Below, piece after piece: positions 1-9,930 of a stretch of 9,930 bases of DNA. Position 1 is the stretch's first letter; each line of letters begins with the position of its first letter. The notes below the pieces were generated by a model. It was not told where the DNA came from. It saw nothing but the letters and a program-made list of their open reading frames with translations, and made no database searches. This DNA comes from a virus. Lineage: Duplodnaviria; Heunggongvirae; Uroviricota; Caudoviricetes. Location: IMG/VR virus record IMGVR_UViG_2681813273_000007, positions 1-9,930 of that record; one strand, given 5' to 3'. Both the position numbers and the translations under genes were made by a program.

Positions 1-10
1 ATATCACTAT

Positions 11-39
11 TTACTTTTAAAAATAACAGTGCTATTAAT
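11..39 (+). promoter_or_regulatory. Candidate sigma70 promoter for the cro-like gene (-35 TTACTT 11-16, 17-bp spacer, -10 TATTAA 34-39)
   Basis: Hexamers read directly from the sequence upstream of the first ORF; the divergent repressor side is outside the window. No operator could be defined. Confidence 0.25.
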
Positions 40-72
40 TATGCATTGGTAACACATCACATAGGGCGGATT

Positions 73-336
73 ATGAATCTTGGAGAATATTTGCATCATT
101 TTCATATAACCCAGAGTTCATTTGCTGAGATTGTTGGCGCATCCCAAGGGATGGTCAGCCACGTTATAACGGGGCGTGCAAAACTTACAGGAGAAAAAAT
201 ATTACGTTGGTGTGAAGCAACGGGATGGGTGGTGACCCCACATGAGATTGACAGTAAAACCTACCCCAACCCAACTGACGGCTTGCCTGCTGAGTTTCAG
301 GCTAACACACAACCATCGGCGGGGGTTGATTCATGA
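73..336 (+). CDS. ydaS: Cro-like HTH DNA-binding protein, YdaS family (ATG at 73; the ORF track starts at an upstream TTG at 46)
   Basis: Helix-turn-helix signature SSFAEIVGASQGMVSHVITGRAKLTGEKILRW; small size; stop overlaps the start of the next gene (ATGA at 333-336), as in ydaS-ydaT pairs of Rac-like prophages. Family assignment from memory. Confidence 0.6.
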   Translation: MNLGEYLHHFHITQSSFAEIVGASQGMVSHVITGRAKLTGEKILRWCEATGWVVTPHEIDSKTYPNPTDGLPAEFQANTQPSAGVDS

Positions 337-758
337 AAATCAAGCATGAACACATCCGCATGGCGATGAAAGCCTGGGCGCATCCGGACGGTGAAAAAGT
401 TCCGGCAGCTGAAATAACCAGGGTTTATTTCGAACTGGGAATGACGTTTCCGGTTCTGCATAACGACAGCAAGCACAACACGCTTTATCTCAACACCCAA
501 AAGATTTTCCGTTGGCTGGATAAAGACACCCCTGACGCTGTTGAAAAAATTCAGGCGTTGTTACCTGCGATCGAAAGGGCAATGCCACCTCCGCTGGTGG
601 CTCGAATGCGCAGCCACAGTTCAGCTTATTTTCGGGAACTGGTGGAGACGCATGAACGACTGGTGAGAGACGCTGATGATTTTGTCGCAGTGGCAATCGC
701 CGGTTTCAATCAGATGAACCGTGGTGGCCCGGCAGGAAATGCTGTGGCAGTACATTGA
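333..758 (+). CDS. ydaT: YdaT-like protein (CII-like regulator of Rac-type prophages)
   Basis: 141-aa ORF starting MKIKHEH, translationally coupled to the upstream cro-like gene; position and size match the YdaS/YdaT pair. Family assignment from memory of the YdaT N-terminus. Confidence 0.55.
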   Translation: MKIKHEHIRMAMKAWAHPDGEKVPAAEITRVYFELGMTFPVLHNDSKHNTLYLNTQKIFRWLDKDTPDAVEKIQALLPAIERAMPPPLVARMRSHSSAYFRELVETHERLVRDADDFVAVAIAGFNQMNRGGPAGNAVAVH

Positions 759-829
759 CTGACAATAGCCATATCGAATCGCTCCCGGCAACTCGTGAGT
801 AAAAAGATTCGGTATCAGAAGAGGTGAGT

Positions 830-1894
830 ATGGCTAACGCCTGGCTCAGATTATGGCATGACATGCCAAATGACCCTAAGTGGCGAACAATTGCCAGGGT
901 GTCAGGGCAGCCAATTGCAACAGTGATGGCAGTGTATATCCACCTCCTGGTGAGCGCGTCACGAAATGTCACGCGAGGTCACATTGATGTCACGACAGAA
1001 GATTTGGCAAGTGCGCTCGACGTGACAGAAGAGGTAATTGATTCAATTTTGCAGACGATGCAGGGGCGGGTACTTGATGGTGATTTAATCACTGGATGGG
1101 AAAAACGCCAGGTGCTTAAAGAGGACAACGGCAATATTTCGCAAACCGCAAAATCTCCTGCAGAGCGCAAGAGGGCGCAGCGAGAGAGGGAAAGAAAGCG
1201 GGAACAAAATGGCGATTGTCACGGCGCGTCACGAAATGTCACGCACATGTCACGACGAGTCACGACAGATACAGATAAAGATACAGATAAAGAAGATCAA
1301 AACACTATGGTCCATGGCGTAAAAAACGCCACGAACCAGGCAGGGGATGTTCAGACCGTCAATCCTGGTCAGCCAGCAGGCTCGACACCGGAAGCCGATT
1401 CAGCGTATGCGCTGAAAGCCGATTCGGGCGCTGTGCAGCAGGTGATGACCGCAAGGCCGGAGCAATCACTCCAACTGCAGCAGCCTGAAGCCGATTCCGC
1501 CATTCAGCGGGAAGCCGATCGGGTAGCCCCGGAAAACACCGGGCAGCCTGTGGGACGAGTGGATTATCCGGATGTGTTCGAACAGGTCTGGCGGGAATAC
1601 CCGTTGCGTGCCGGGGCAAACCCGAAGAAATCCGCATTCAGTGCCTGGAAGGCCAGATTGCGCGAGGGGGTGCCACCAGAGACCATGCTGGATGGTGTGA
1701 GGCGTTACGCGAGATACCTGGCGGCGACCGGGAAAGCGGGAACGGAATTTGTTCAGCGAGCGACGACGTTTTTTGGGCCGGACCGGAATTTTGAAAACCC
1801 CTGGTTGCTCCCGGTAAGCGGCACGAACAACCAGCGTTGTGTGAATCATATTTCTGAACCGGATACCGAAATTCCGCCGGGATTCAGGGGGTGA
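830..1894 (+). CDS. Phage replisome organizer (lambda O analogue) with DnaT-like C-terminal domain; ATG 830 preferred, GTG 824 also possible
   Basis: RBS GAGGTG at 821-826; C-terminus ...VNHISEPDTEIPPGFRG resembles the C-terminus of E. coli DnaT as I recall it; gene sits immediately upstream of a DnaC-like gene; central region is low-complexity and repeat-encoded. Confidence 0.7.
   Translation: MANAWLRLWHDMPNDPKWRTIARVSGQPIATVMAVYIHLLVSASRNVTRGHIDVTTEDLASALDVTEEVIDSILQTMQGRVLDGDLITGWEKRQVLKEDNGNISQTAKSPAERKRAQRERERKREQNGDCHGASRNVTHMSRRVTTDTDKDTDKEDQNTMVHGVKNATNQAGDVQTVNPGQPAGSTPEADSAYALKADSGAVQQVMTARPEQSLQLQQPEADSAIQREADRVAPENTGQPVGRVDYPDVFEQVWREYPLRAGANPKKSAFSAWKARLREGVPPETMLDGVRRYARYLAATGKAGTEFVQRATTFFGPDRNFENPWLLPVSGTNNQRCVNHISEPDTEIPPGFRG
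954..1292 (+). repeat. Iteron-like repeats inside the organizer gene: GTCACG at 958, 968, 978 (GTCACA), 989 and again at 1218, 1228, 1238, 1249, 1259; a 21-bp direct repeat at 954-974 and 1224-1244; tandem ATACAGATAAAG x2 at 1269-1292
   Basis: Counted directly; spacing within each cluster is 10, 10, 11 (and 10) bp, about one helical turn; an inverted copy CGTGAC lies at 1020-1025; AT-rich tract follows the second cluster. Confidence 0.55.
1391..1534 (+). repeat. Four degenerate 24-bp repeats beginning GAAGCCGATTC (1391, 1415, 1487, 1511) encoding EADS/KADS/EADS/EADR peptide repeats
   Basis: Counted directly in the linker region of the organizer gene. Confidence 0.5.
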
Positions 1895-1900
1895 TGTGGC

Positions 1901-2647
1901 ATGAAAAACATTGCGGCAGCCGGGGTTCTTGAACGTATTCACAGACTTGCACCACAGGGGGCGGTTCCACCGTACCGGACGGTGGAGGAGTGGCGGGAAT
2001 GGCAACTTGCTGAAGGACGAAAACGCAGCGAGGAGATTAACCGCCAGAATCGCCAGTTGCGGGTGGAAAAAATCCTGAATCGTTCGGGCATCCAGCCTCT
2101 GCACAGCAAATGCTCGTTTGCGAATTATCAGGTGCAGAACGACGGGCAAAAATACGCGCTGAGCCAGGCCAAATCCATAGCTGACGAACTGATGACCGGG
2201 TGCACGAATTTTGTGTTCAGCGGTAAAACCGGCACCGGGAAAAATCACCTTGCAGCGGCGATGGGTAACCGGCTGATGGCGAAGGGGCGCAGCGTGATTA
2301 TCGTCACCGAGTCTGATGTCATGAGCGTGTTGCATGACAGCTACGACAACGGCAAATCCGGTGAAAAATTTTTACAGGAGCTTTGCGGGGTTGATTTGCT
2401 GGTCCTGGATGAAATAGGCATTCAGCGGGAGACGAAAAACGAGCAGGTGGTATTGCACCAGATAATTGATCGCCGGACAGCATCACTGTGCAGTGTCGGG
2501 ATGTTAACAAACCTGAATCATGCCGCAATGAGCACGCTTCTTGGTGAGAGGATTATGGACCGCATGACCATGAACGGTTGTCGGTGGGTGACGTTTAACT
2601 GGGATAGCTGGCGTTCAAATGTCAGCTTTCCGGGAGTTGTGAAGTAA
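1901..2647 (+). CDS. DnaC-like replicative helicase loader (phage P analogue, AAA+ ATPase)
   Basis: Walker A FSGKTGTGKNHLAAA and Walker B LLVLDEIG; overall strong resemblance to host DnaC as recalled; start 7 nt after the stop of the DnaT-domain gene. Confidence 0.85.
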   Translation: MKNIAAAGVLERIHRLAPQGAVPPYRTVEEWREWQLAEGRKRSEEINRQNRQLRVEKILNRSGIQPLHSKCSFANYQVQNDGQKYALSQAKSIADELMTGCTNFVFSGKTGTGKNHLAAAMGNRLMAKGRSVIIVTESDVMSVLHDSYDNGKSGEKFLQELCGVDLLVLDEIGIQRETKNEQVVLHQIIDRRTASLCSVGMLTNLNHAAMSTLLGERIMDRMTMNGCRWVTFNWDSWRSNVSFPGVVK

Positions 2648-2668
2648 TTTTTGTTGGAGGATGTTTTA

Positions 2669-3394
2669 ATGGAAACTGTATTTGACGCACTGAAAGCACT
2701 GAAAAGAGCCTCTTCACATGTGGTGGCGTCCCGCCTTGGAATCAGCCGTGAAGATGCGGTCAACGAACTGTGGAAACTGAAGCGCCGTGGTGAAGCGGAT
2801 AACAAGGGTTCGATGTGGTGGCTGATTCAGGCTGGTGAAAGTGAACCAGTGTCACCGGTACCGAAAGTGACAGCGCAAATGCTGACTGAGGCGATTGAAC
2901 AACATGGCCCACAAACGGCGGATGAGCTGGCACTGATGTTCGGGATTACCTCCCGCCGGGCGAATTCATCGCTGGCCATGGCAATCAGCAAAGGGCGTCT
3001 GATTCGCGTGAATCAGGGCGGTAAATTTCGGTACTGCATACCGGGCGCTGATTTACCGGCAGAGCCGAAAGCCGCATCCATAGCGGAAACGGATGGTAAA
3101 GTCTTTCCTCAGCCAGCAGGTGTTGCGTTACCGGTACAGGAAGCTGCAACACAGGAAGAAATTAAAACAGAAACTGTGGCGGACATTGTGCAGTCGTTGC
3201 CATCGTTCACCGAAACGCAAGCGGATGACCTGGTTTTACCATCGCTGCATATGGCAAACCGCGAACTGCGTCGGGCGAAAAGTCATGTCCAGAAGTGGGA
3301 GCGTGTCTGCGCCGCGTTGCGGGAGCTGAACAAGCACCGGGATATTGTTCGACAGATTGTCGATTCCTCCGGTCGTATTGTGTCGGAAAAGTGA
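2669..3394 (+). CDS. Hypothetical prophage protein, 241 aa, two winged-helix-like segments and a charged C-terminal region (ORF track starts at TTG 2651; ATG 2669 has GGAGG 8 nt upstream)
   Basis: Long ORF with a good RBS; no family recognised. It has no counterpart between the DnaC-like and Ren-like genes of the second module. Confidence 0.5.
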
Positions 3395-3409
3395 TTGCCG
3401 GGGGCGCTT

Positions 3410-3649
3410 ATGGCAAAAGTATTTACACAGGAAGAGCGGGAAAAAATTAAGGGGCAGGTTGTTGAACTCGTACGCCAGAGTGGGCGCGAGACGTTACGAC
3501 AACTGGAAGCTAAAACCGGGGCGACAAGATATTTAATAAGCGTTCTCGCCAGAGAGCTGGTTGCCAGTGGGGATGTATACAACTCTGGCTACGGGTTATT
3601 CCCGTCTGAACAGGCTCGTAAGGACTGGCAAAACGCCCGCAAAAAACTC
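3410..3649 (+). pseudogene. ren: 5' part of a Ren-like gene (module I), interrupted after codon 80; the reading frame runs on into IS600 sequence to a stop at 3697
   Basis: Encodes MAKVFTQEEREK...QNARKKL, collinear with the intact 140-aa paralogue at 6359-6781; homology ends exactly where the IS end begins. Ren assignment from memory of the lambda Ren C-terminus (see 6359-6781). Confidence 0.55.
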
Positions 3650-3693
3650 ATGAGGTGTACTGGCAATAGCGGACACTACCATTTGTTCTTTTT

Positions 3694-4512
3694 TTAAGCA
3701 GCCATCTGATGATATTTTTCCCTGAAGGCTGCCGGGGAGATATTCCCCAGACGAGAGTGACGACGCTGACGATTGTAGAAAATCTCAATGTATTCCCGTA
3801 TTACTGAGATGGCTTCATCCCGGTTATTAAAACGATAGTGGCTCAGGCTCTCATTTTTCAGCGTTCCCCAGAAGCTTTCCATCGGAGCGTTGTCGTAACA
3901 GTTACCTTTACGCGACATTGATGTTTTCAGACCAGACTGCTCCTGTATGACCCGGTAATCGTATGCGCAGTACTGTGAACCTCGATCAGAGTGGTGGATT
4001 AGCCCGGCAGGTGGGCGCTGGCTCCTGAGCGCCATAAACAGGGCTTTACCTGTCAGCTCTTTTGTCATGCGCTCTCCCATGGCGTAGCCGACAATTTCGC
4101 ACGTATAAACATCTTTGATGCCAGCGAGGTACAACCATCCCTCCTGTGTGGCAACATACGTCAGGTCCGCCACCCAGACCTGATTTGGTGCTGTAGGAGC
4201 GAACGTCTGGTTCAGCAGATTTGGCGCAACTGGCAGATTGTGGTTCGAGTTCGTAGTCGCTCTGAACTTGCGTTTCTGCTTACAGCGTAGCCTTAGCTCC
4301 TTACGAAGACGTGCCAGTCGGTCACGACCAACGATGATGCCATTCTCTGCCAGCTCCGTCTGGAGCCGCCGGGTTCCATATGTTTCGCGAGTGCGGATAT
4401 GTGCCACCTTAATCTCCAGTTTTAGCCGCTCATCACTTTGTTTTCTGTCTGAGGGTTCATGCTGTACCCAGTTGTAATAACCGCTCCTGGATACACCAAA
4501 TACCTGACACAT
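3694..4512 (-). CDS. IS3-family transposase OrfB (DDE catalytic domain); the true OrfAB product is made by -1 frameshifting near 4592-4599, so the OrfB frame extends upstream of 4512
   Basis: 272-aa ORF from the first in-frame Met; integrase-like core; overlaps orfA in the -1 frame. Confidence 0.9.
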   Translation of the reverse strand: MCQVFGVSRSGYYNWVQHEPSDRKQSDERLKLEIKVAHIRTRETYGTRRLQTELAENGIIVGRDRLARLRKELRLRCKQKRKFRATTNSNHNLPVAPNLLNQTFAPTAPNQVWVADLTYVATQEGWLYLAGIKDVYTCEIVGYAMGERMTKELTGKALFMALRSQRPPAGLIHHSDRGSQYCAYDYRVIQEQSGLKTSMSRKGNCYDNAPMESFWGTLKNESLSHYRFNNRDEAISVIREYIEIFYNRQRRHSRLGNISPAAFREKYHQMAA

Positions 4513-4547
4513 CGCTTCAATGGGAAATTGTTGTCGCCATTGTTCGA

Positions 4548-4850
4548 TTAACGCGTATTTTTCAGCGACTCCTGTGCAAAATACGCTGTTGCTTTTTTTA
4601 ATATATCTCGCTCAAGGCGAGCTTCATTTAACGCCTTACGCAGTTGCAGAATTTCAGATTCCAGTTCAGCCACCGTGCGGGAACCAGGAGTACCGAGCCC
4701 TTTTCTGGCGGCGGTAACCCATTGTCCTAAAGTGCCTTCAGGAAGAGATAATCGGGAAGCGCCTTCACTGATCGAAAGTTGATTTTCAAGAACCGTTCTG
4801 ACAGCTTCGGCTTTGAACTCTTTAGAGTAACGTTGGGTTTTTCTGCTCAT
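4548..4850 (-). CDS. IS3-family transposase OrfA (HTH, leucine-zipper part)
   Basis: 100-aa ORF MSRKTQRYSKEFKAEAV... with an AAGGAG RBS; the A7G slippery motif (reverse complement of 4592-4599) lies near its 3' end. Confidence 0.9.
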   Translation of the reverse strand: MSRKTQRYSKEFKAEAVRTVLENQLSISEGASRLSLPEGTLGQWVTAARKGLGTPGSRTVAELESEILQLRKALNEARLERDILKKATAYFAQESLKNTR

Positions 4851-4914
4851 TATTAGCTCCTTCTGATGCCATTCTATTTCAGGAAGGAGTGTCCGTTAAA
4901 CTCAGGCTACCTCA

Positions 4915-5591
4915 GGTTATTCGCTTCTGGGCATGGGCGGATCAACAAATGATAGACGGTAATGCAGATTGTAACGCTCGCGGCGTTACAAAAAGTGCAA
5001 TAGATCGCATCACTTTTATGTCTGGTTTTGCTGATGCGTTAATTCAGGTTGGATGGCTGGTCGAAAATGACGGAGGGCTTTCTCTACCTAACTTTGAACG
5101 TCATAACGGAAAAAGCTCTAAAAAAAACGGGCGGTTACAAACGAGCGAGTAACAAAAATACGCGAACTGAAACGAAAAGGTAACGCTGCCAGCGTTACAC
5201 AAACGGATCAAAAAGCGTTACCAGAGGAAGAGGAAGAGGAAGATCTAAATACTGATCTCCCCCTCGCCAAAAACGAGCGTCTAAAAAATTCGAGCCGGAG
5301 GCTATTGAGCTGCCCGATTGGTTGCCGGAAACACTCTGGCATGAGTGGGTCCGGTTCAGACAGGCATTGCGAAAACCGATTCGAACGGAGCAGGGCGCTA
5401 ACGGGGCGATACGGGAACTGGAAAAATTCCGTCAGCAGGGTTTTACACCTGAGCAGGTGATTCGACACAGCATCGCCAATGAATACCAGGGCCTGTTCGC
5501 GCCGAAAGGTGTTCGGCCTGAGACGTTGCTCCGACAGGTTAACACCGTCTCGTTGCCGGACAGTGCGATCCCGCCAGGCTTCAGGGGGTAA
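4915..5591 (+). pseudogene. 5'-truncated, frameshifted replisome-organizer/DnaT-domain gene (module II)
   Basis: Begins abruptly at the IS end; three reading frames must be joined (switches inside A8 at 5120-5127 and A6 at 5283-5288) to obtain one protein ending ...VNTVSLPDSAIPPGFRG, the same C-terminal motif as the module I gene. Confidence 0.7.
4959..5221 (+). repeat. GTAACGC-type repeats in the module II organizer gene: 19-bp palindromes GTAACGC-N5-GCGTTAC at 4971-4989 and 5180-5198, half-sites at 4959-4965 (GTAATGC) and 5215-5221
   Basis: Counted directly; they occupy the same relative part of the gene as the GTCACG clusters of module I. Confidence 0.45.
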
Positions 5592-5597
5592 CGGACC

Positions 5598-6344
5598 ATG
5601 AAAAATATTGCGACAGGCGGCGTTCTGGAACGCATCCGCCGACTGACCCCGCCACATGTAACCGCCCCATTCAGAACGGTAGCGGAGTGGCGCGAGTGGC
5701 AACTTGCTGAAGGCCAGAAACGTAGCGAGGAGATCAACCGCCTGAATCGCCAGTTGCGGGTGGAAAAAATTCTGAATCGCTCAGGCATCCAGCCGTTGCA
5801 CCGTAAATGCTCGTTTGCGAATTACCAGGTGCAGAACGACGGCCAGCGATACGCGTTAAGCCAGGCGAAATCCATCGCCGATGAACTGATGACCGGGTGT
5901 ACAAATTTTGCGTTCAGCGGAAAACCTGGTACCGGGAAGAATCACTTAGCGGCAGCTATCGGGAATCGCCTGCTGAAAGACGGTCAGACAGTGATTGTGG
6001 TTACCGTGGCTGATGTTATGAGCGCCCTGCACGCCAGCTATGACGACGGGCAGTCAGGCGAAAAATTTTTGCGGGAGCTGTGCGAAGTGGATCTGCTGGT
6101 TCTTGATGAAATTGGCATTCAGCGCGAGACGAAAAACGAGCAGGTGGTGCTGCACCAGATTGTTGATCGCCGGACAGCGTCGATGCGCAGCGTGGGGATG
6201 CTGACAAACCTGAACTATGAGGTGATGAAAACATTGCTCGGCGAGCGGGTGATGGATCGCATGGTCATGAACGGCGGGCGCTGGGTGAATTTTAACTGGG
6301 AGAGCTGGCGTCCGAATGTTAGCCATTCGAGGGTTGTTAAGTAG
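5598..6344 (+). CDS. DnaC-like replicative helicase loader, second copy (about 85 percent identical in protein to 1901-2647)
   Basis: Walker A FSGKPGTGKNHLAAA, Walker B LLVLDEIG; collinear with the first copy. Confidence 0.85.
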   Translation: MKNIATGGVLERIRRLTPPHVTAPFRTVAEWREWQLAEGQKRSEEINRLNRQLRVEKILNRSGIQPLHRKCSFANYQVQNDGQRYALSQAKSIADELMTGCTNFAFSGKPGTGKNHLAAAIGNRLLKDGQTVIVVTVADVMSALHASYDDGQSGEKFLRELCEVDLLVLDEIGIQRETKNEQVVLHQIVDRRTASMRSVGMLTNLNYEVMKTLLGERVMDRMVMNGGRWVNFNWESWRPNVSHSRVVK

Positions 6345-6358
6345 TTTCAGGAGGATTT

Positions 6359-6781
6359 ATGGCGAAACCTTTTACTCCCGAACAGCGGGAAGAACTGAAG
6401 ACGCGAATTGTGGAACTCGTGCATCAGGACGGTCGGGTCACGATTCGGCAGTTGTCAGATGAAACAGGTATCAGTCGTGCGTCTGTCGGTCGCTTATGCA
6501 TAGAACTGGTCGCAAGTGGTGATGTATATAATTCTGGCTACGGCTTATTCCCGTCTGAACAGGCTCGCAAGGACTGGCAAAGCGCCCGCAAAAAACTCTC
6601 GAGAGTAAAGGTGAGGAAACCGGTTGTTGTTGATCCGGACCTTATCTGGTCATTACCTGACGGAGAAATACGCCGCTACGACAGGCGCCTGAATATAATC
6701 TGTCGCGAGTGCCGGAAGAGCGAAGCTATGCAGCGTGTACTGGCTTTCTATCAGGGTAATTTTCAGGAGGCGATACTGTGA
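6359..6781 (+). CDS. ren: Ren-like protein (module II), intact, 140 aa
   Basis: Strong RBS AGGAGG at 6348-6353; N-terminal winged-HTH-like segment and a C-terminus ...ICRECRKSEAMQRVLAFYQG that matches lambda Ren (...KECRQSAAMKRVLAVYG) as I recall it; position after the P-like gene as in lambda. Confidence 0.5.
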   Translation: MAKPFTPEQREELKTRIVELVHQDGRVTIRQLSDETGISRASVGRLCIELVASGDVYNSGYGLFPSEQARKDWQSARKKLSRVKVRKPVVVDPDLIWSLPDGEIRRYDRRLNIICRECRKSEAMQRVLAFYQGNFQEAIL

Positions 6782-6838
6782 ATGAAATTAGCTATCAGGC
6801 TTCAATTACCGCTGGCATTCGCATCAAAGGAGAGGAGC

Positions 6839-6952
6839 ATGGAAATAAAACGATATTGCTTAACTCATCTTCTGGTTTTATTTCCGGTAAAAGAGGATGA
6901 CCCTCGTAATCAGGTTAATTTTCTTTATGAGCCATCGGAAAGACCATATTAG
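6839..6952 (+). pseudogene. Truncated 5' fragment (37 codons) of the small Cys/coiled-coil gene, module II allele
   Basis: MEIKRYCLTHLLVLFPVKEDDPRNQVNFLYEPSERPY then a stop at the junction; same RBS and start context as the intact gene at 7215. Confidence 0.45.
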
Positions 6953-7157
6953 GCAAAACGCCCGCAAAAAACTCTCGAGGGCAAAGCTGAAGAAACCATC
7001 TGTGGTTGATCCGGACCTTATCTGGTCATTACCGGACGGAGAAATACGCCGCTACGACAGACATCAGAACATAATCTGTCGCGAGTGCCGGAAGAGTGAA
7101 GTTATGCAGCGTGTACCGGCTTTCTATCAGGGTGATTTTCAGGAGGCGGTACTGTGA
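6952..7157 (+). pseudogene. ren: 3' part of the split module I Ren-like gene
   Basis: Encodes QNARKKLSRAKLKKPSVVDPDLIWSLPDGEIRRYDRHQNIICRECRKSEVMQRVPAFYQGDFQEAVL; its first 23 bp (6952-6974) are identical to 3627-3649, the last bases of the 5' part before IS600. Confidence 0.6.
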
Positions 7158-7214
7158 GTGAAATTAGCTATCAGGCTTCAATTACCGCTGGCATTCGCAT
7201 CAAAGGAGAGGAGC

Positions 7215-7571
7215 ATGGAAATAAAACCAGAAGATGAGTTAAGCAATATTGTTTTATTTCCGGTAAAAGAGGATAACCCTCGTAATCAGGTTAATTTTCT
7301 TTATGAGCCATCGGAAAGACCATATTGCCATCACGCTTCTGTCCGGGTTGACGAAAAAGAGCGTCAGGTCCGCTGTAAAATTTGCGGTGCAGTTGTGGAG
7401 CCATTTGACTGGATGCTCTCTGTGGCGAAAAGAGAAACCAGACTGGCAGATGATGTAAGGCTCTTGCGCCAGGAGGAGCGGGAAAGGCGAAAAAATATAG
7501 AAAAGCTAATCCAGATTGAGCGTAATGCGAAAGCGCGGATACGCAGGGTGACAAAATATAGCCCCGAATAA
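7215..7571 (+). CDS. Hypothetical small protein, 118 aa, Cys/His cluster (C-H-H ... C-x2-C) followed by a charged coiled-coil-like C-terminus
   Basis: Strong RBS AGGAG at 7203-7210 with ATG at 7215; the ORF track begins at an upstream in-frame codon (7158), which I do not prefer. Confidence 0.5.
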   Translation: MEIKPEDELSNIVLFPVKEDNPRNQVNFLYEPSERPYCHHASVRVDEKERQVRCKICGAVVEPFDWMLSVAKRETRLADDVRLLRQEERERRKNIEKLIQIERNAKARIRRVTKYSPE

Positions 7572-7785
7572 TCAAGGTTATTTCTGGAAGTCAAGTCGTG
7601 AGTGATGAGGACTAACAAATACGGTGAACTCGATAAAGAGATTCAGGACGAACTGGAGGCCAGGAATGATTGACAAATCACCAAGTGAGTTCAGCTACAA
7701 AGATTTATTGTCATAACGGGTTATGAGATCGACTTGGTGCGTGATATTCTTCGGGCCAGTTTGCTATGCGCCACCATGAGATGTT

Positions 7786-8223
7786 ATGGCCCGCATGTTT
7801 GATACATTAGGATTTTACATTATGAATGTGCAACATTTTGATTTTTTTACAGATAATGAGTTTTCTAATCTGGAAAGATATCAAACTTGTAAAGCCATGG
7901 CCAAAGGTTATGCGGGCAATTACAAAACCGGGCAGTCAAGGTTGATGCATGCCCGCTCATACTGCTTCAGCATCGTAGCTGCATATTGGGATACACGGGT
8001 TGACGAAAAAGAGCGTCAGGTCCGCTGTAAAATCTGCGGTGCGGTTGTGGAGCCGTTTGACTGGATGCTCTCTGTGGCAAAAAGAGAAACCAGACTGGCA
8101 GATGATGTAAGGCTATTGCGCCAGGAGGAACAGGAAAGGCGGAGAAATATAGAAAAGCTGATACAGATTGAGCGTAACGCGAAAGCGCGGATACGCAGGG
8201 CGACAAAATCCAGAACTGAATAA
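7786..8223 (+). CDS. Hypothetical paralogue of the 118-aa protein: different N-terminal half, near-identical C-terminal 75 aa (alternative start ATG 7822 with AGGA 8 nt upstream)
   Basis: DNA 7996-8208 is about 95 percent identical to 7343-7555; upstream parts are unrelated. Confidence 0.45.
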   Translation: MARMFDTLGFYIMNVQHFDFFTDNEFSNLERYQTCKAMAKGYAGNYKTGQSRLMHARSYCFSIVAAYWDTRVDEKERQVRCKICGAVVEPFDWMLSVAKRETRLADDVRLLRQEEQERRRNIEKLIQIERNAKARIRRATKSRTE

Positions 8224-8370
8224 TTAAATTTAGCACTGTTAAAAATTTAATCCTTAACCGGAGGGATTTCTGCACCCTCAAATCATCAGGAGACCACCCG
8301 AAAGGGCGGGGAGCAGTCACACATCTGTTTCCGATAGCCCCGTTCTAATGCTACACTCTTTGATATTTTT

Positions 8371-9057
8371 ATGACCCCAATAAACATATTTATGACAGTT
8401 GCTGATTTCAAACGGCCCAAATTGGAGCTCCCAAACGGGGCAAACAAACTACTACTGCACTCTTGCTGTGCTCCATGTTCCGGTGAGGTGATGGAGGCGC
8501 TTCAGGCCTCGGGAATCGACTACACCATCTTTTTCTACAACCCGAACATTCATCCTCAGAAAGAGTATTTAATTCGTAAGGATGAGAATATTCGCTTTGC
8601 TGAACAACACGGCGTGCCGTTTATTGATGCTGATTACGACACAGACAACTGGTTTGAACGAGCCAAAGGAATGGAATGGGAGCCCGAACGAGGGATCCGT
8701 TGCACCATGTGTTTTGACATGCGTTTTGAGCGGACAGCGCTGTACGCCGCTGAAAATGGTTTCAGTGTGATCAGCAGTTCACTGGGCATTTCACGCTGGA
8801 AAAATATGCAGCAGGTTAACGACTGTGGGCGGCGAGCCGTCGCGCATTATCCGGGCATGGTGTACTGGGATTATAACTGGCGCAAGCAGGGCGGCTCGTC
8901 CCGTATGATTGAAATCAGCAAGCGCGAAAAATTCTATCAGCAGGAATATTGTGGCTGTGTGTATTCTCTGCGCGATACCAATCTACACCGCAAATCTCAG
9001 GGACGCCCTCTTATCAAAATTGGTCAACTCCACTACGGTAAAGAAGAGAAGGAGTGA
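8371..9057 (+). CDS. queH: QueH-like protein (DUF208 family, epoxyqueuosine reductase-like); start may be the internal ATG at 8392
   Basis: N-terminal [11 protein letters not shown] motif plus later Cys pairs (CTMC, CGC), which I recall as the DUF208/QueH signature; 228 aa is the expected size. Not verified by search. Confidence 0.55.
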
Positions 9058-9116
9058 TTTTATGGGGCACCTTTCTGATTGATTTCATATTGGCGAGGTA
9101 AGTAGAATGACTGCGG

Positions 9117-9284
9117 GTGCTTGAGGCTATCTGCTTCAGGCATGAACACCAAAAGGCAGATAGAGAAAAGCCCCAGTTAACATTACGCGTCCGGCAAGAC
9201 GCTTAACATTAATCTGAGGCCAATTTCATGCTTTGCACATGTAGGTTAGCCTCTTACATGCCGAAAGGCAAGGAGAAGCAGGCT
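9117..9284 (+). promoter_or_regulatory. Leader of the hok-family mRNA (predicted 5' folding elements)
   Basis: Sequence GCTTGAGGCTATCTGC...GCAGATAG forms an 8-bp stem (9127-9134 with 9156-9163) and resembles hok mRNA leaders as recalled; precise 5' end not determinable. Confidence 0.4.
9180..9260 (-). ncRNA. sok: Predicted sok-like antisense RNA overlapping the mok start region (position approximate)
   Basis: Inferred only from the conserved organisation of hok/sok loci; I could not define a convincing promoter or terminator on the minus strand. Confidence 0.25.
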
Positions 9285-9440
9285 ATGAAGCAGCAAAAGG
9301 CGATGTTAATCGCCCTGATCGTCATCTGTTTAACCGTCATAGTGACGGCACTGGTAACGAGGAAAGACCTCTGTGAGGTACGAATCCGAACCGGCCAGAC
9401 GGAGGTCGCTGTCTTCGTAGACTACGAATCCAGGAAGTAA
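9228..9440 (+). CDS. mok: Mok-like reading frame (in-frame N-terminal extension of hok)
   Basis: 70-aa ORF MLCTCRLASYMPKGKEKQA followed in frame by the Hok peptide, as in chromosomal mok/hok pairs. Confidence 0.55.
   Translation: MLCTCRLASYMPKGKEKQAMKQQKAMLIALIVICLTVIVTALVTRKDLCEVRIRTGQTEVAVFVDYESRK
9285..9440 (+). CDS. hok: Hok/Gef-family type I toxin, 51 aa, single transmembrane helix
   Basis: MKQQKAMLIALIVICLTVIVTALVTRKDLCEVRIRTGQTEVAVFVDYESRK is very close to HokC/HokD as recalled; AAGGAG RBS 10 nt upstream. Confidence 0.85.
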   Translation: MKQQKAMLIALIVICLTVIVTALVTRKDLCEVRIRTGQTEVAVFVDYESRK

Positions 9441-9517
9441 GAGTGACCGGGCGGGGAGCTGATCCCATCCCCGCCCACCTCTGATGTGTCAGGCATCCTC
9501 AACGCACCCGCACTTAA

Positions 9518-9560
9518 CCCGCCCATCGCTGTGATCTCTCAGCGTTTCGGCGGGTTTTTT
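9518..9560 (+). terminator. Candidate intrinsic terminator / hok mRNA 3' element (CCCGCC ... GGCGGG stem followed by T6)
   Basis: Stem arms at 9518-9523 and 9549-9554, T run 9555-9560; the loop is long (25 nt), so this is a weak call. A tighter hairpin GGGCGGGGA/TCCCCGCCC lies at 9450-9478. Confidence 0.4.
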
Positions 9561-9699
9561 GTTGTTTATTTCCGGTGAATTTGATTCGCGCACCTTCGCA
9601 GATAGAATCGACTCACTTAAGTAGCGCGCAGGGAGAAGAGGGATGGACCCCGAACAGGGGAGAGCTATTTATCTGGAAGGATTCTGAAGATGAAAATCG

Positions 9700-9930
9700 A
9701 AGAATTGCGTGAAATTTTTAGTGAAAATGGCCTCTATGCTGTGCGCGTTGAGAATGGAGCGATTGTCAGCCATTGCCGCATTAGATGTTTGCAATCTCAA
9801 CAAAGGAAGAGCGGTGCTGTGTTATTTTATTTTTGTAATGGACTTCTGACGGACGGTTTTATTTTGCGTGAGGACGAATTTGTCACATCATTACGGGTTT
9901 TGAAAGAGATAGGTTTTAAGGCTGGTTTTC
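9700..9930 (+). CDS. 5' part of an unrecognised gene running off the window end (MKIEELREIFSENGLYAVRVENGAIVSHCRIRCLQ...)
   Basis: Open frame of 77 codons from an ATG with AAGGA upstream and no stop before the window edge; absent from the ORF track because it is unterminated. Confidence 0.35.

Follow-up and report, generated by a model that had tools for sequence, protein, structure and literature searches.

Two non-homologous enzymes are described for the conversion of epoxyqueuosine (oQ) to queuosine (Q) at position 34 of tRNA: QueG, whose cobalamin dependence is stated in PMC4646009 (citing Frey 1988) and which is among the four cobamide-dependent enzymes in PMC11841063, and QueH, described as a cobamide-independent alternative (PMC6461909). 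Both can occur in one genome, as in Streptococcus pyogenes and Streptococcus suis (PMC12632869). Among phages, queuosine-pathway genes are known from 7-deazaguanine DNA-modification clusters (DpdA with FolE, QueD, QueE, QueC, and others), which insert preQ0-derived bases in DNA; Hutinet et al. (2019), who analysed such systems, reported no QueA, QueG, or QueH homologues in the viruses covered (PMC6884629). Here we describe a queH gene carried as cargo within a lambdoid prophage, found in a 9,930-nucleotide stretch of Caudoviricetes DNA (IMG/VR record IMGVR_UViG_2681813273_000007, positions 1 to 9,930; hereafter the window). The QueH family, its reaction, and the RefSeq product name are already known; what appears undescribed is carriage by lambdoid phages, as no description of QueH on a prophage or lambdoid phage was found in the literature searched.

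The gene appears in the window as an unbroken open reading frame (ORF) at 8371-9057 (+), 228 amino acids (aa) long when read from its first ATG. An earlier note on this DNA had placed the ORF in the QueH/DUF208 family on the strength of a motif, and this identity is confirmed. The profile search that the note had proposed as a check matched Pfam PF02677 (QueH) at E 1.9e-65 with a bit score of 220.6 (threshold 23.5), essentially end to end over positions 1-174 of the 175-position profile, and the product also matched the Thermotoga maritima QueH sequence in Protein Data Bank (PDB) entry 7LC5 (E 5.3e-22), both far above chance level. An AlphaFold2 (AF2) model built on an alignment of 32 homologues (mean predicted local distance difference test score 78, predicted template modelling score 0.80) has the QueH fold, with an adenine-nucleotide alpha-hydrolase-like core as in 7LC5. 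Its top five Foldseek matches in the PDB were all T. maritima QueH (target-normalised template modelling score, TM, 0.81-0.83; root-mean-square deviation, rmsd, 2.6-4.1 Å), with target-normalised TM of 0.82-0.83 and rmsd of 2.6 Å against 7LC5 and 7LC7; below these five, matches dropped to E ~1e-3 and were other alpha-hydrolase-like tRNA enzymes.

Seven cysteines are invariant across the 32 homologues: C25, C26, and C29 (CCAPC), C104 and C107 (CTMC), and C187 and C189 (CGC). They align to C9, C10, and D13 of the T. maritima enzyme and to its CxxC (CerC) and CGC motifs, and the PDB mutant entries 9D86 (C9S) and 9DCO (D13N) mark C9 and D13 as residues probed by crystallographers. Cysteine in place of T. 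maritima Asp13 is the majority state in the family, because CCAPC occurs in 103 of the 107 family representatives having the motif and CCAPD in 3. The conserved cysteines are predicted ligands of a [4Fe-4S] cluster and an adjacent metal site, both characteristic of the QueH family. The prophage protein thus resembles T. maritima QueH (7LC5, 7LC7, 9DEU) in its full-length profile match, fold, and cysteine set (CC..x/CxxC/CGC), but differs in having CCAPC rather than CCAPD, in a ~20-residue basic C-terminal tail that other proteobacterial homologues share and the 192-aa T. maritima protein lacks, and in its vehicle, a lambdoid phage instead of a housekeeping locus.

The protein encoded in the window is identical to that of Shigella sonnei Ss046, and RefSeq/PGAP names it 'epoxyqueuosine reductase QueH'. 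Since no NCBIfam release 20 model matches it at E <= 0.01, this name must stem from another evidence source. In PHROGs, the corresponding family is phrog_3217, labelled 'unknown function'. The phrog_3217 profile, 188 positions long, begins at residue 34 of the protein and so leaves out the CCAPC motif, an N-terminal truncation that points to gene starts placed at the internal Met in many phage records.

The earlier note regarded the gene as lying next to a prophage, a placement that needs revision: phage early genes fill positions 1-8223 and related prophages go on downstream, which puts queH inside the element, where it is cargo. The lambdoid early-right region housing it (1-8223, +), identified from Pfam matches, RefSeq annotation of matching prophages, and repeats, encodes a Cro-like helix-turn-helix (HTH) protein, YdaT, two diverged ydaU/ydaV replication modules, DUF1627, and DUF977. 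The queH slot is downstream of the replication module (ydaU/ydaV/DUF977) and upstream of hok/sok, and in related prophages nin-like genes and a Q-type antiterminator come next. At a near-identical locus in FDAARGOS_944, an integrase adjoining ybhA (gal-mod region) is followed by early genes including queH and then, 3' of these, by DUF1367/DUF1364/DUF1133 genes, tRNA genes, and lysis, terminase, head, and tail genes. The same slot holds queH on Rac-like prophages ending beside trkG (Escherichia coli 042 and E10). It does so too in an O157:H7 prophage (Z1813) with ydfB/ydfC-type early genes, in Escherichia albertii, in at least 188 IMG/VR viral contigs, and in HannyBb, an isolated temperate phage whose record labels the gene 'hypothetical'. 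Every context of this gene that was inspected was a lambdoid prophage or phage. When 50,697 phage records were searched with tblastn, HannyBb was the only credible cultured phage with QueH; the remaining matches, either faecal fragments lacking annotation or oversized records of 'phages' from Acinetobacter, Staphylococcus, and Listeria that resemble bacterial DNA, were not counted as phage QueH.

Transfer of queH among these backbones appears to involve a small, sharply bounded unit. Between otherwise unrelated prophage backbones, homology to the window starts exactly at 8321 in 64 of 80 IMG/VR loci and mostly runs through hok/sok to ~9520, and genome matches having queH alone in common end at 9061-9100; the mobile queH cassette is ~740 bp, including 71 bp upstream of the coding sequence (CDS). 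At its 5' edge (8321-8370, +), ATGCTACACT is invariant in all 80 loci, and TGCTACACT at 8349-8357 fits an extended -10 element (TGnTAnAnT) ~34 nt ahead of the ATG at 8392. A box of the form TGCTACA(C/A)T lies at equal distance before chromosomal queH in Scandinavium (where it reads TGCTACAAT), Kluyvera, Enterobacter quasihormaechei, Symbiopectobacterium, and Erwinia sp. P7711, with weaker CTACA(C/A)T versions in other Enterobacterales. This element was recognised solely by comparative alignment. TGCTACACT is a candidate promoter of queH itself, and its sharing with chromosomal homologues suggests that the gene may have brought its housekeeping promoter along, from which it could be expressed in the lysogen.

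The cassette resembles lambdoid morons in its sharp boundaries inside a phage genome (the edge at 8321) and its absence from related phages. In E. coli WL7562, the slot ordered DUF977, small gene, variable gene, hokD contains a DUF7167 gene and small ORFs in place of queH. As with lambda bor and lom and with viral auxiliary metabolic genes, the cargo appears host-derived, has a promoter-like element, and is swappable among backbones; in contrast to morons, no flanking terminator was found and the predicted function is a tRNA-modification step, a kind of lambdoid cargo for which the literature searched gave no description.

The comparison of alleles also bears on the start codon. The RefSeq annotation uses the second ATG, position 8392 of the window, chromosomal homologues align starting at this second Met, and in the allele of E. 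coli E10 the stretch separating the two ATGs contains an in-frame stop, with the remainder intact. The true start is therefore probably 8392, giving a CDS at 8392-9057 (+) of 221 aa plus stop, the part to which the PF02677, 7LC5, AF2, and cysteine evidence applies. The upstream in-frame ATG and seven codons (8371-8391, +) are probably an untranslated 5' leader rather than coding sequence.

Across 5426 complete E. coli genomes, queG is universal (5426/5426) and queH is present in 995, full length in 985 of them. It follows that queH is accessory, not core, and that every carrier has two non-homologous oQ reductases. The DUF208 match is significant and the gene, found in phage contexts, is not a conserved core gene of the species, so neither of the two findings that the earlier note had named as contradicting its proposal was obtained. 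QueG and prophage QueH share a predicted reaction (oQ34-tRNA to Q34-tRNA) and occur together in each carrier genome, yet they are unrelated in sequence, one B12-dependent and the other belonging to the cobamide-independent alternative, one core and the other accessory. Carriers resemble the dual-enzyme streptococci in having two non-orthologous oQ reductases per cell, and Acinetobacter baylyi ADP1 reportedly also carries both QueG and QueH. In such genomes both genes are chromosomal as far as reported, whereas the second enzyme of E. coli is phage-borne and strain-variable.

The statement in the earlier note that enteric hosts normally use QueG holds for E. coli but is too broad for enteric bacteria at large: chromosomal queH genes whose products are 79-92% identical to the prophage protein occur in Enterobacter, Kluyvera, Scandinavium, Erwinia, Providencia, Proteus, Photorhabdus, Serratia, and Pantoea. 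The closest non-phage relatives are those of Scandinavium (92% aa identity), Kluyvera (91%), and Enterobacter (89-90%), near which no phage marker proteins were found; Erwinia sp. P7711 (86%), Providencia (83%), and Photorhabdus (80%) are more distant. Chromosomal contexts vary by genus (purL-queH-glrK in Erwinia sp. P7711, proximity to tmcA/purC in Providencia, to benE in Photorhabdus, and to icd in one Enterobacter) and do not point to any one locus as the donor. Synonymous sites are saturated between prophage queH and the genes of Erwinia, Providencia, and Photorhabdus, which rules out very recent capture from these genera; this DNA-level comparison covered those three rather than the closer Enterobacter, Kluyvera, and Scandinavium copies.

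Some further observations concern the chromosomal genes themselves. In Erwinia sp. P7711-type contigs (1454-8126), queH sits between purL and a glrK/glrR/glnB/hmp/glyA block. We take E. coli K-12 to have the same two gene sets near each other without queH, in which case presence or absence of queH at this housekeeping locus would be lineage-specific. The QueH subfamily is unusually conserved, with 75-80% aa identity between Enterobacterales and Alphaproteobacteria (Sphingomonas, Paracoccus, Acetobacter). A 78% match in a contig labelled Bacillus subtilis SK7B5 appears to reflect contamination or mislabelling.

Selection on queH is very strong and purifying. Ratios of nonsynonymous to synonymous divergence (dN/dS) among prophage alleles are 0.02-0.05, with synonymous divergence (dS) up to 0.46, while in the same prophages the neighbouring genes ydaV (0.08-0.15) and DUF977 (0.09-0.23) are less constrained and more diverged (dS up to 1.3). 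Each of the 80 IMG/VR copies encodes an uninterrupted 221-aa product, and only 5 protein variants account for them all. Such constraint combined with low divergence is what would be expected of a cassette spreading across backbones under selection for function.

We consider it probable that this gene encodes a working QueH, a cobalamin-independent tRNA epoxyqueuosine reductase carried as phage cargo, which serves as a B12-independent backup to QueG. The predicted iron-sulfur enzyme would convert oQ34 to Q on tRNA-Asp, -Asn, -His, and -Tyr by reducing its epoxide, with no need of cobalamin. We infer this activity from the 79-92% identity to chromosomal QueH of other Proteobacteria and from other members of the family, which have reportedly been validated as oQ reductases. 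The gene was probably acquired from the chromosome of a member of the Enterobacteriaceae, along with ~70 bp of native upstream sequence, and now moves between lambda-like phages that infect E. coli, Shigella, and E. albertii, within the slot between the replication genes and the hok/nin/Q-antiterminator region. E. coli has no de novo B12 synthesis and QueG requires B12, so a lysogen with QueH would complete Q with or without a B12 supply, and this independence may be the selective advantage of the cargo. Since QueH does not depend on the cofactor, it would be a backup of QueG and not a plain duplicate. The choice offered in the earlier note, between a redundant enzyme and one acting on another substrate, is incomplete in this respect, as cobalamin-dependent QueG and cobamide-independent QueH are not equivalent (PMC4646009, PMC6461909).

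Several points weigh against this explanation. Purifying selection fits benefit to the phage and benefit to the host equally well. Loss of queG had no growth phenotype in the assay of PMC11841063, and so slight a mutant phenotype leaves the fitness value of Q over oQ unproven. Similarly, some streptococci end the pathway at oQ (PMC12632869), which implies that oQ is tolerable. In the early and late genes of the prophage, NAU makes up 0.54 of the Asp, Asn, His, and Tyr codons, a share within the 0.51-0.65 of the host samples, so that no translational beneficiary of Q is evident. With regard to expression, a generic sigma-70 promoter scan around queH called nothing upstream on the + strand, with counts not above those of shuffled sequences; a terminator scan found none after queH and none separating it from its neighbours; and no obvious Shine-Dalgarno sequence precedes either ATG.

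The best-surviving alternative, which we regard as unlikely, is that queH is a neutral passenger, an active enzyme that duplicates QueG with no gain to phage or host. The universality of queG would fit this explanation, as would the absence of a growth phenotype on queG loss (in one assay, PMC11841063) and the occupation of the slot, a cargo hotspot, by unrelated genes where other prophages lack queH or hok/sok. Passengers should gather lesions, however, and none of the 80 IMG/VR loci has a disrupted copy, 985 of 995 genomic copies are full length, and dN/dS is several-fold under that of neighbouring phage genes. Furthermore, the upstream box is invariant, and queH remains intact even in apparently degraded Rac-like prophages whose lysis genes abut trkG.

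Slightly less probable is a role on the phage side, in which conversion of oQ to Q on tRNA tunes phage translation or phage-host conflict during lytic growth, with queH transcribed as part of the early-right operon. The position of queH in a pR-type early operon, where it follows the replication genes and is co-oriented with them, is consistent with this role, as are the lack of a terminator between queH and its neighbours and its carriage by HannyBb, an isolated and viable phage. In addition, a 2026 preprint links Q to phage infection outcome in Shewanella. The codon data speak against it, however: phage genes needing Q were sought by codon usage without any signal, NAU/NAC use (0.54) falling within the host range (0.51-0.65). 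The tRNA genes of queH prophages are for Ile, Arg, Thr, Gly, or Thr plus Gly, none of which carries Q; they lie in the interval between the antiterminator region and the lysis genes (23276-23586 in locus L001, 9332-9485 in locus L010). Turnover of the tRNA pool would also be slow relative to a lytic cycle, and the conserved -10 box, being of housekeeping type, favours expression of queH on its own.

A more specific conflict role, for which phages would keep QueH instead of as a housekeeping backup, seems improbable. Here control of the oQ/Q state of GUN-anticodon tRNAs would alter susceptibility to tRNA-targeting toxins, such as colicin E5-type anticodon nucleases, which enter through the B12 receptor BtuB, or the enzyme would act on an epoxy-deazaguanine outside tRNA. 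If either version were true, QueH would be the first phage-borne queuosine tRNA-maturation enzyme acting in phage-host conflict.

The least likely explanation, raised in the earlier note, is that the enzyme has a different substrate, such as an epoxy-7-deazaguanine in phage DNA or another epoxide. Phage DNA is known to contain 7-deazaguanines (PMC6884629), restriction-modification genes at times occupy the neighbouring slot, and a methyltransferase fragment lies directly upstream of queH. Yet nothing points to such a substrate and we consider it very improbable: prophage QueH shares with the 7-deazaguanine clusters only the presence of a queuosine-pathway gene in a phage genome and stands alone, with no DpdA/TGT-like, QueA, QueC/D/E, FolE, or other preQ0-pathway genes annotated in the FDAARGOS_944 prophage, 32 kb of HannyBb, or the 042, Z1813, and E10 regions (by annotation, not by a profile scan of every ORF), and an oQ-type base would have no route into DNA without a transglycosylase and QueA; the product has no match among PADLOC defence models at E <= 0.01; and near-identity to housekeeping QueH (89-92%) with all ligand residues kept leaves little room for new specificity.

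Downstream of queH, the hok locus that the earlier note had seen beside it is indeed present, as a hok/sok type I toxin-antitoxin module at 9115-9440 (+), supported by Rfam, Pfam, and the RefSeq label hokD. It comprises a sok/hok-leader at 9115-9290 (+; Rfam RF01794, 117 bits), a mok-like ORF at 9228-9440 (+; Pfam Hok/Gef, E 9.8e-23), and the hok CDS at 9285-9440 (+; RefSeq hokD). This module is a frequent but non-obligate neighbour of queH. Its place directly 3' of queH is taken in O157:H7 Z1813 (locus 6922-8932) by a restriction-modification pair, consisting of a DNA cytosine methyltransferase and an NgoMIV-family endonuclease, and in E10 the sole annotated gene at this place is of the TehB family, on the opposite strand. 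The interval from DUF977 to the nin-like genes behaves as a cargo hotspot.

The early region of the window shows its own signs of rearrangement. An insertion sequence (IS) element of the IS3 family at 3694-4850 (-), with orfA (HTH_Tnp_1) at 4548-4850 and orfB (rve) at 3694-4512, is inserted in a DUF977 gene (3395-3697), which it cuts short at 3697; RefSeq labels matching copies IS600. On the far side of this element, 4889-5591 encodes the C-terminal part of a second ydaU-like gene, and ydaV is present twice (1901-2647 and 5598-6344; repeat D1, 84% identity), from which it follows that the window holds two diverged replication modules. There are also tandem partial duplications at 6576-6851/6952-7227 (92%) and 7344-7580/7996-8232 (91%). 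These have produced chimeric ORFs: a second DUF977 C-terminal fragment at 6897-7157, and two phrog_1621 zinc-ribbon-like copies at 7158-7571 and 7786-8223. Over its residues 7-84, the ORF at 7786-8223 (+) matches the N-terminal end (positions 2-78 of 604, E 5e-17) of PADLOC MTase_II, a type II DNA methyltransferase model, and its C-terminus matches phrog_1621, giving it the appearance of a methyltransferase remnant fused to a neighbouring gene. In HannyBb, a 207-bp fragment labelled 'DNA methyltransferase' sits at the equivalent place upstream of queH. The IS3-family insertion and the rearrangements are compatible with the window deriving from Shigella.

Recognition of QueH as prophage cargo would correct both the 'unknown function' label of phrog_3217 in PHROGs and the 2019 survey in which viral QueH homologues were not found (PMC6884629). 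Since tRNA bearing oQ functions for the most part, the phenotypic effect of the prophage enzyme is probably subtle, and the phenotypes of queG loss are mild; other work ties Q to translation accuracy, biofilm, virulence, and metal stress (PMC10570037, PMC9508795). If prophage QueH is active, about one-fifth of E. coli, together with carrier strains of S. sonnei, Shigella boydii, and E. albertii, would finish Q without B12, while E. coli lacking queH would rely on scavenged B12. Prophage queH would then represent a strain-variable, phage-delivered difference in the tRNA epitranscriptome of these bacteria.

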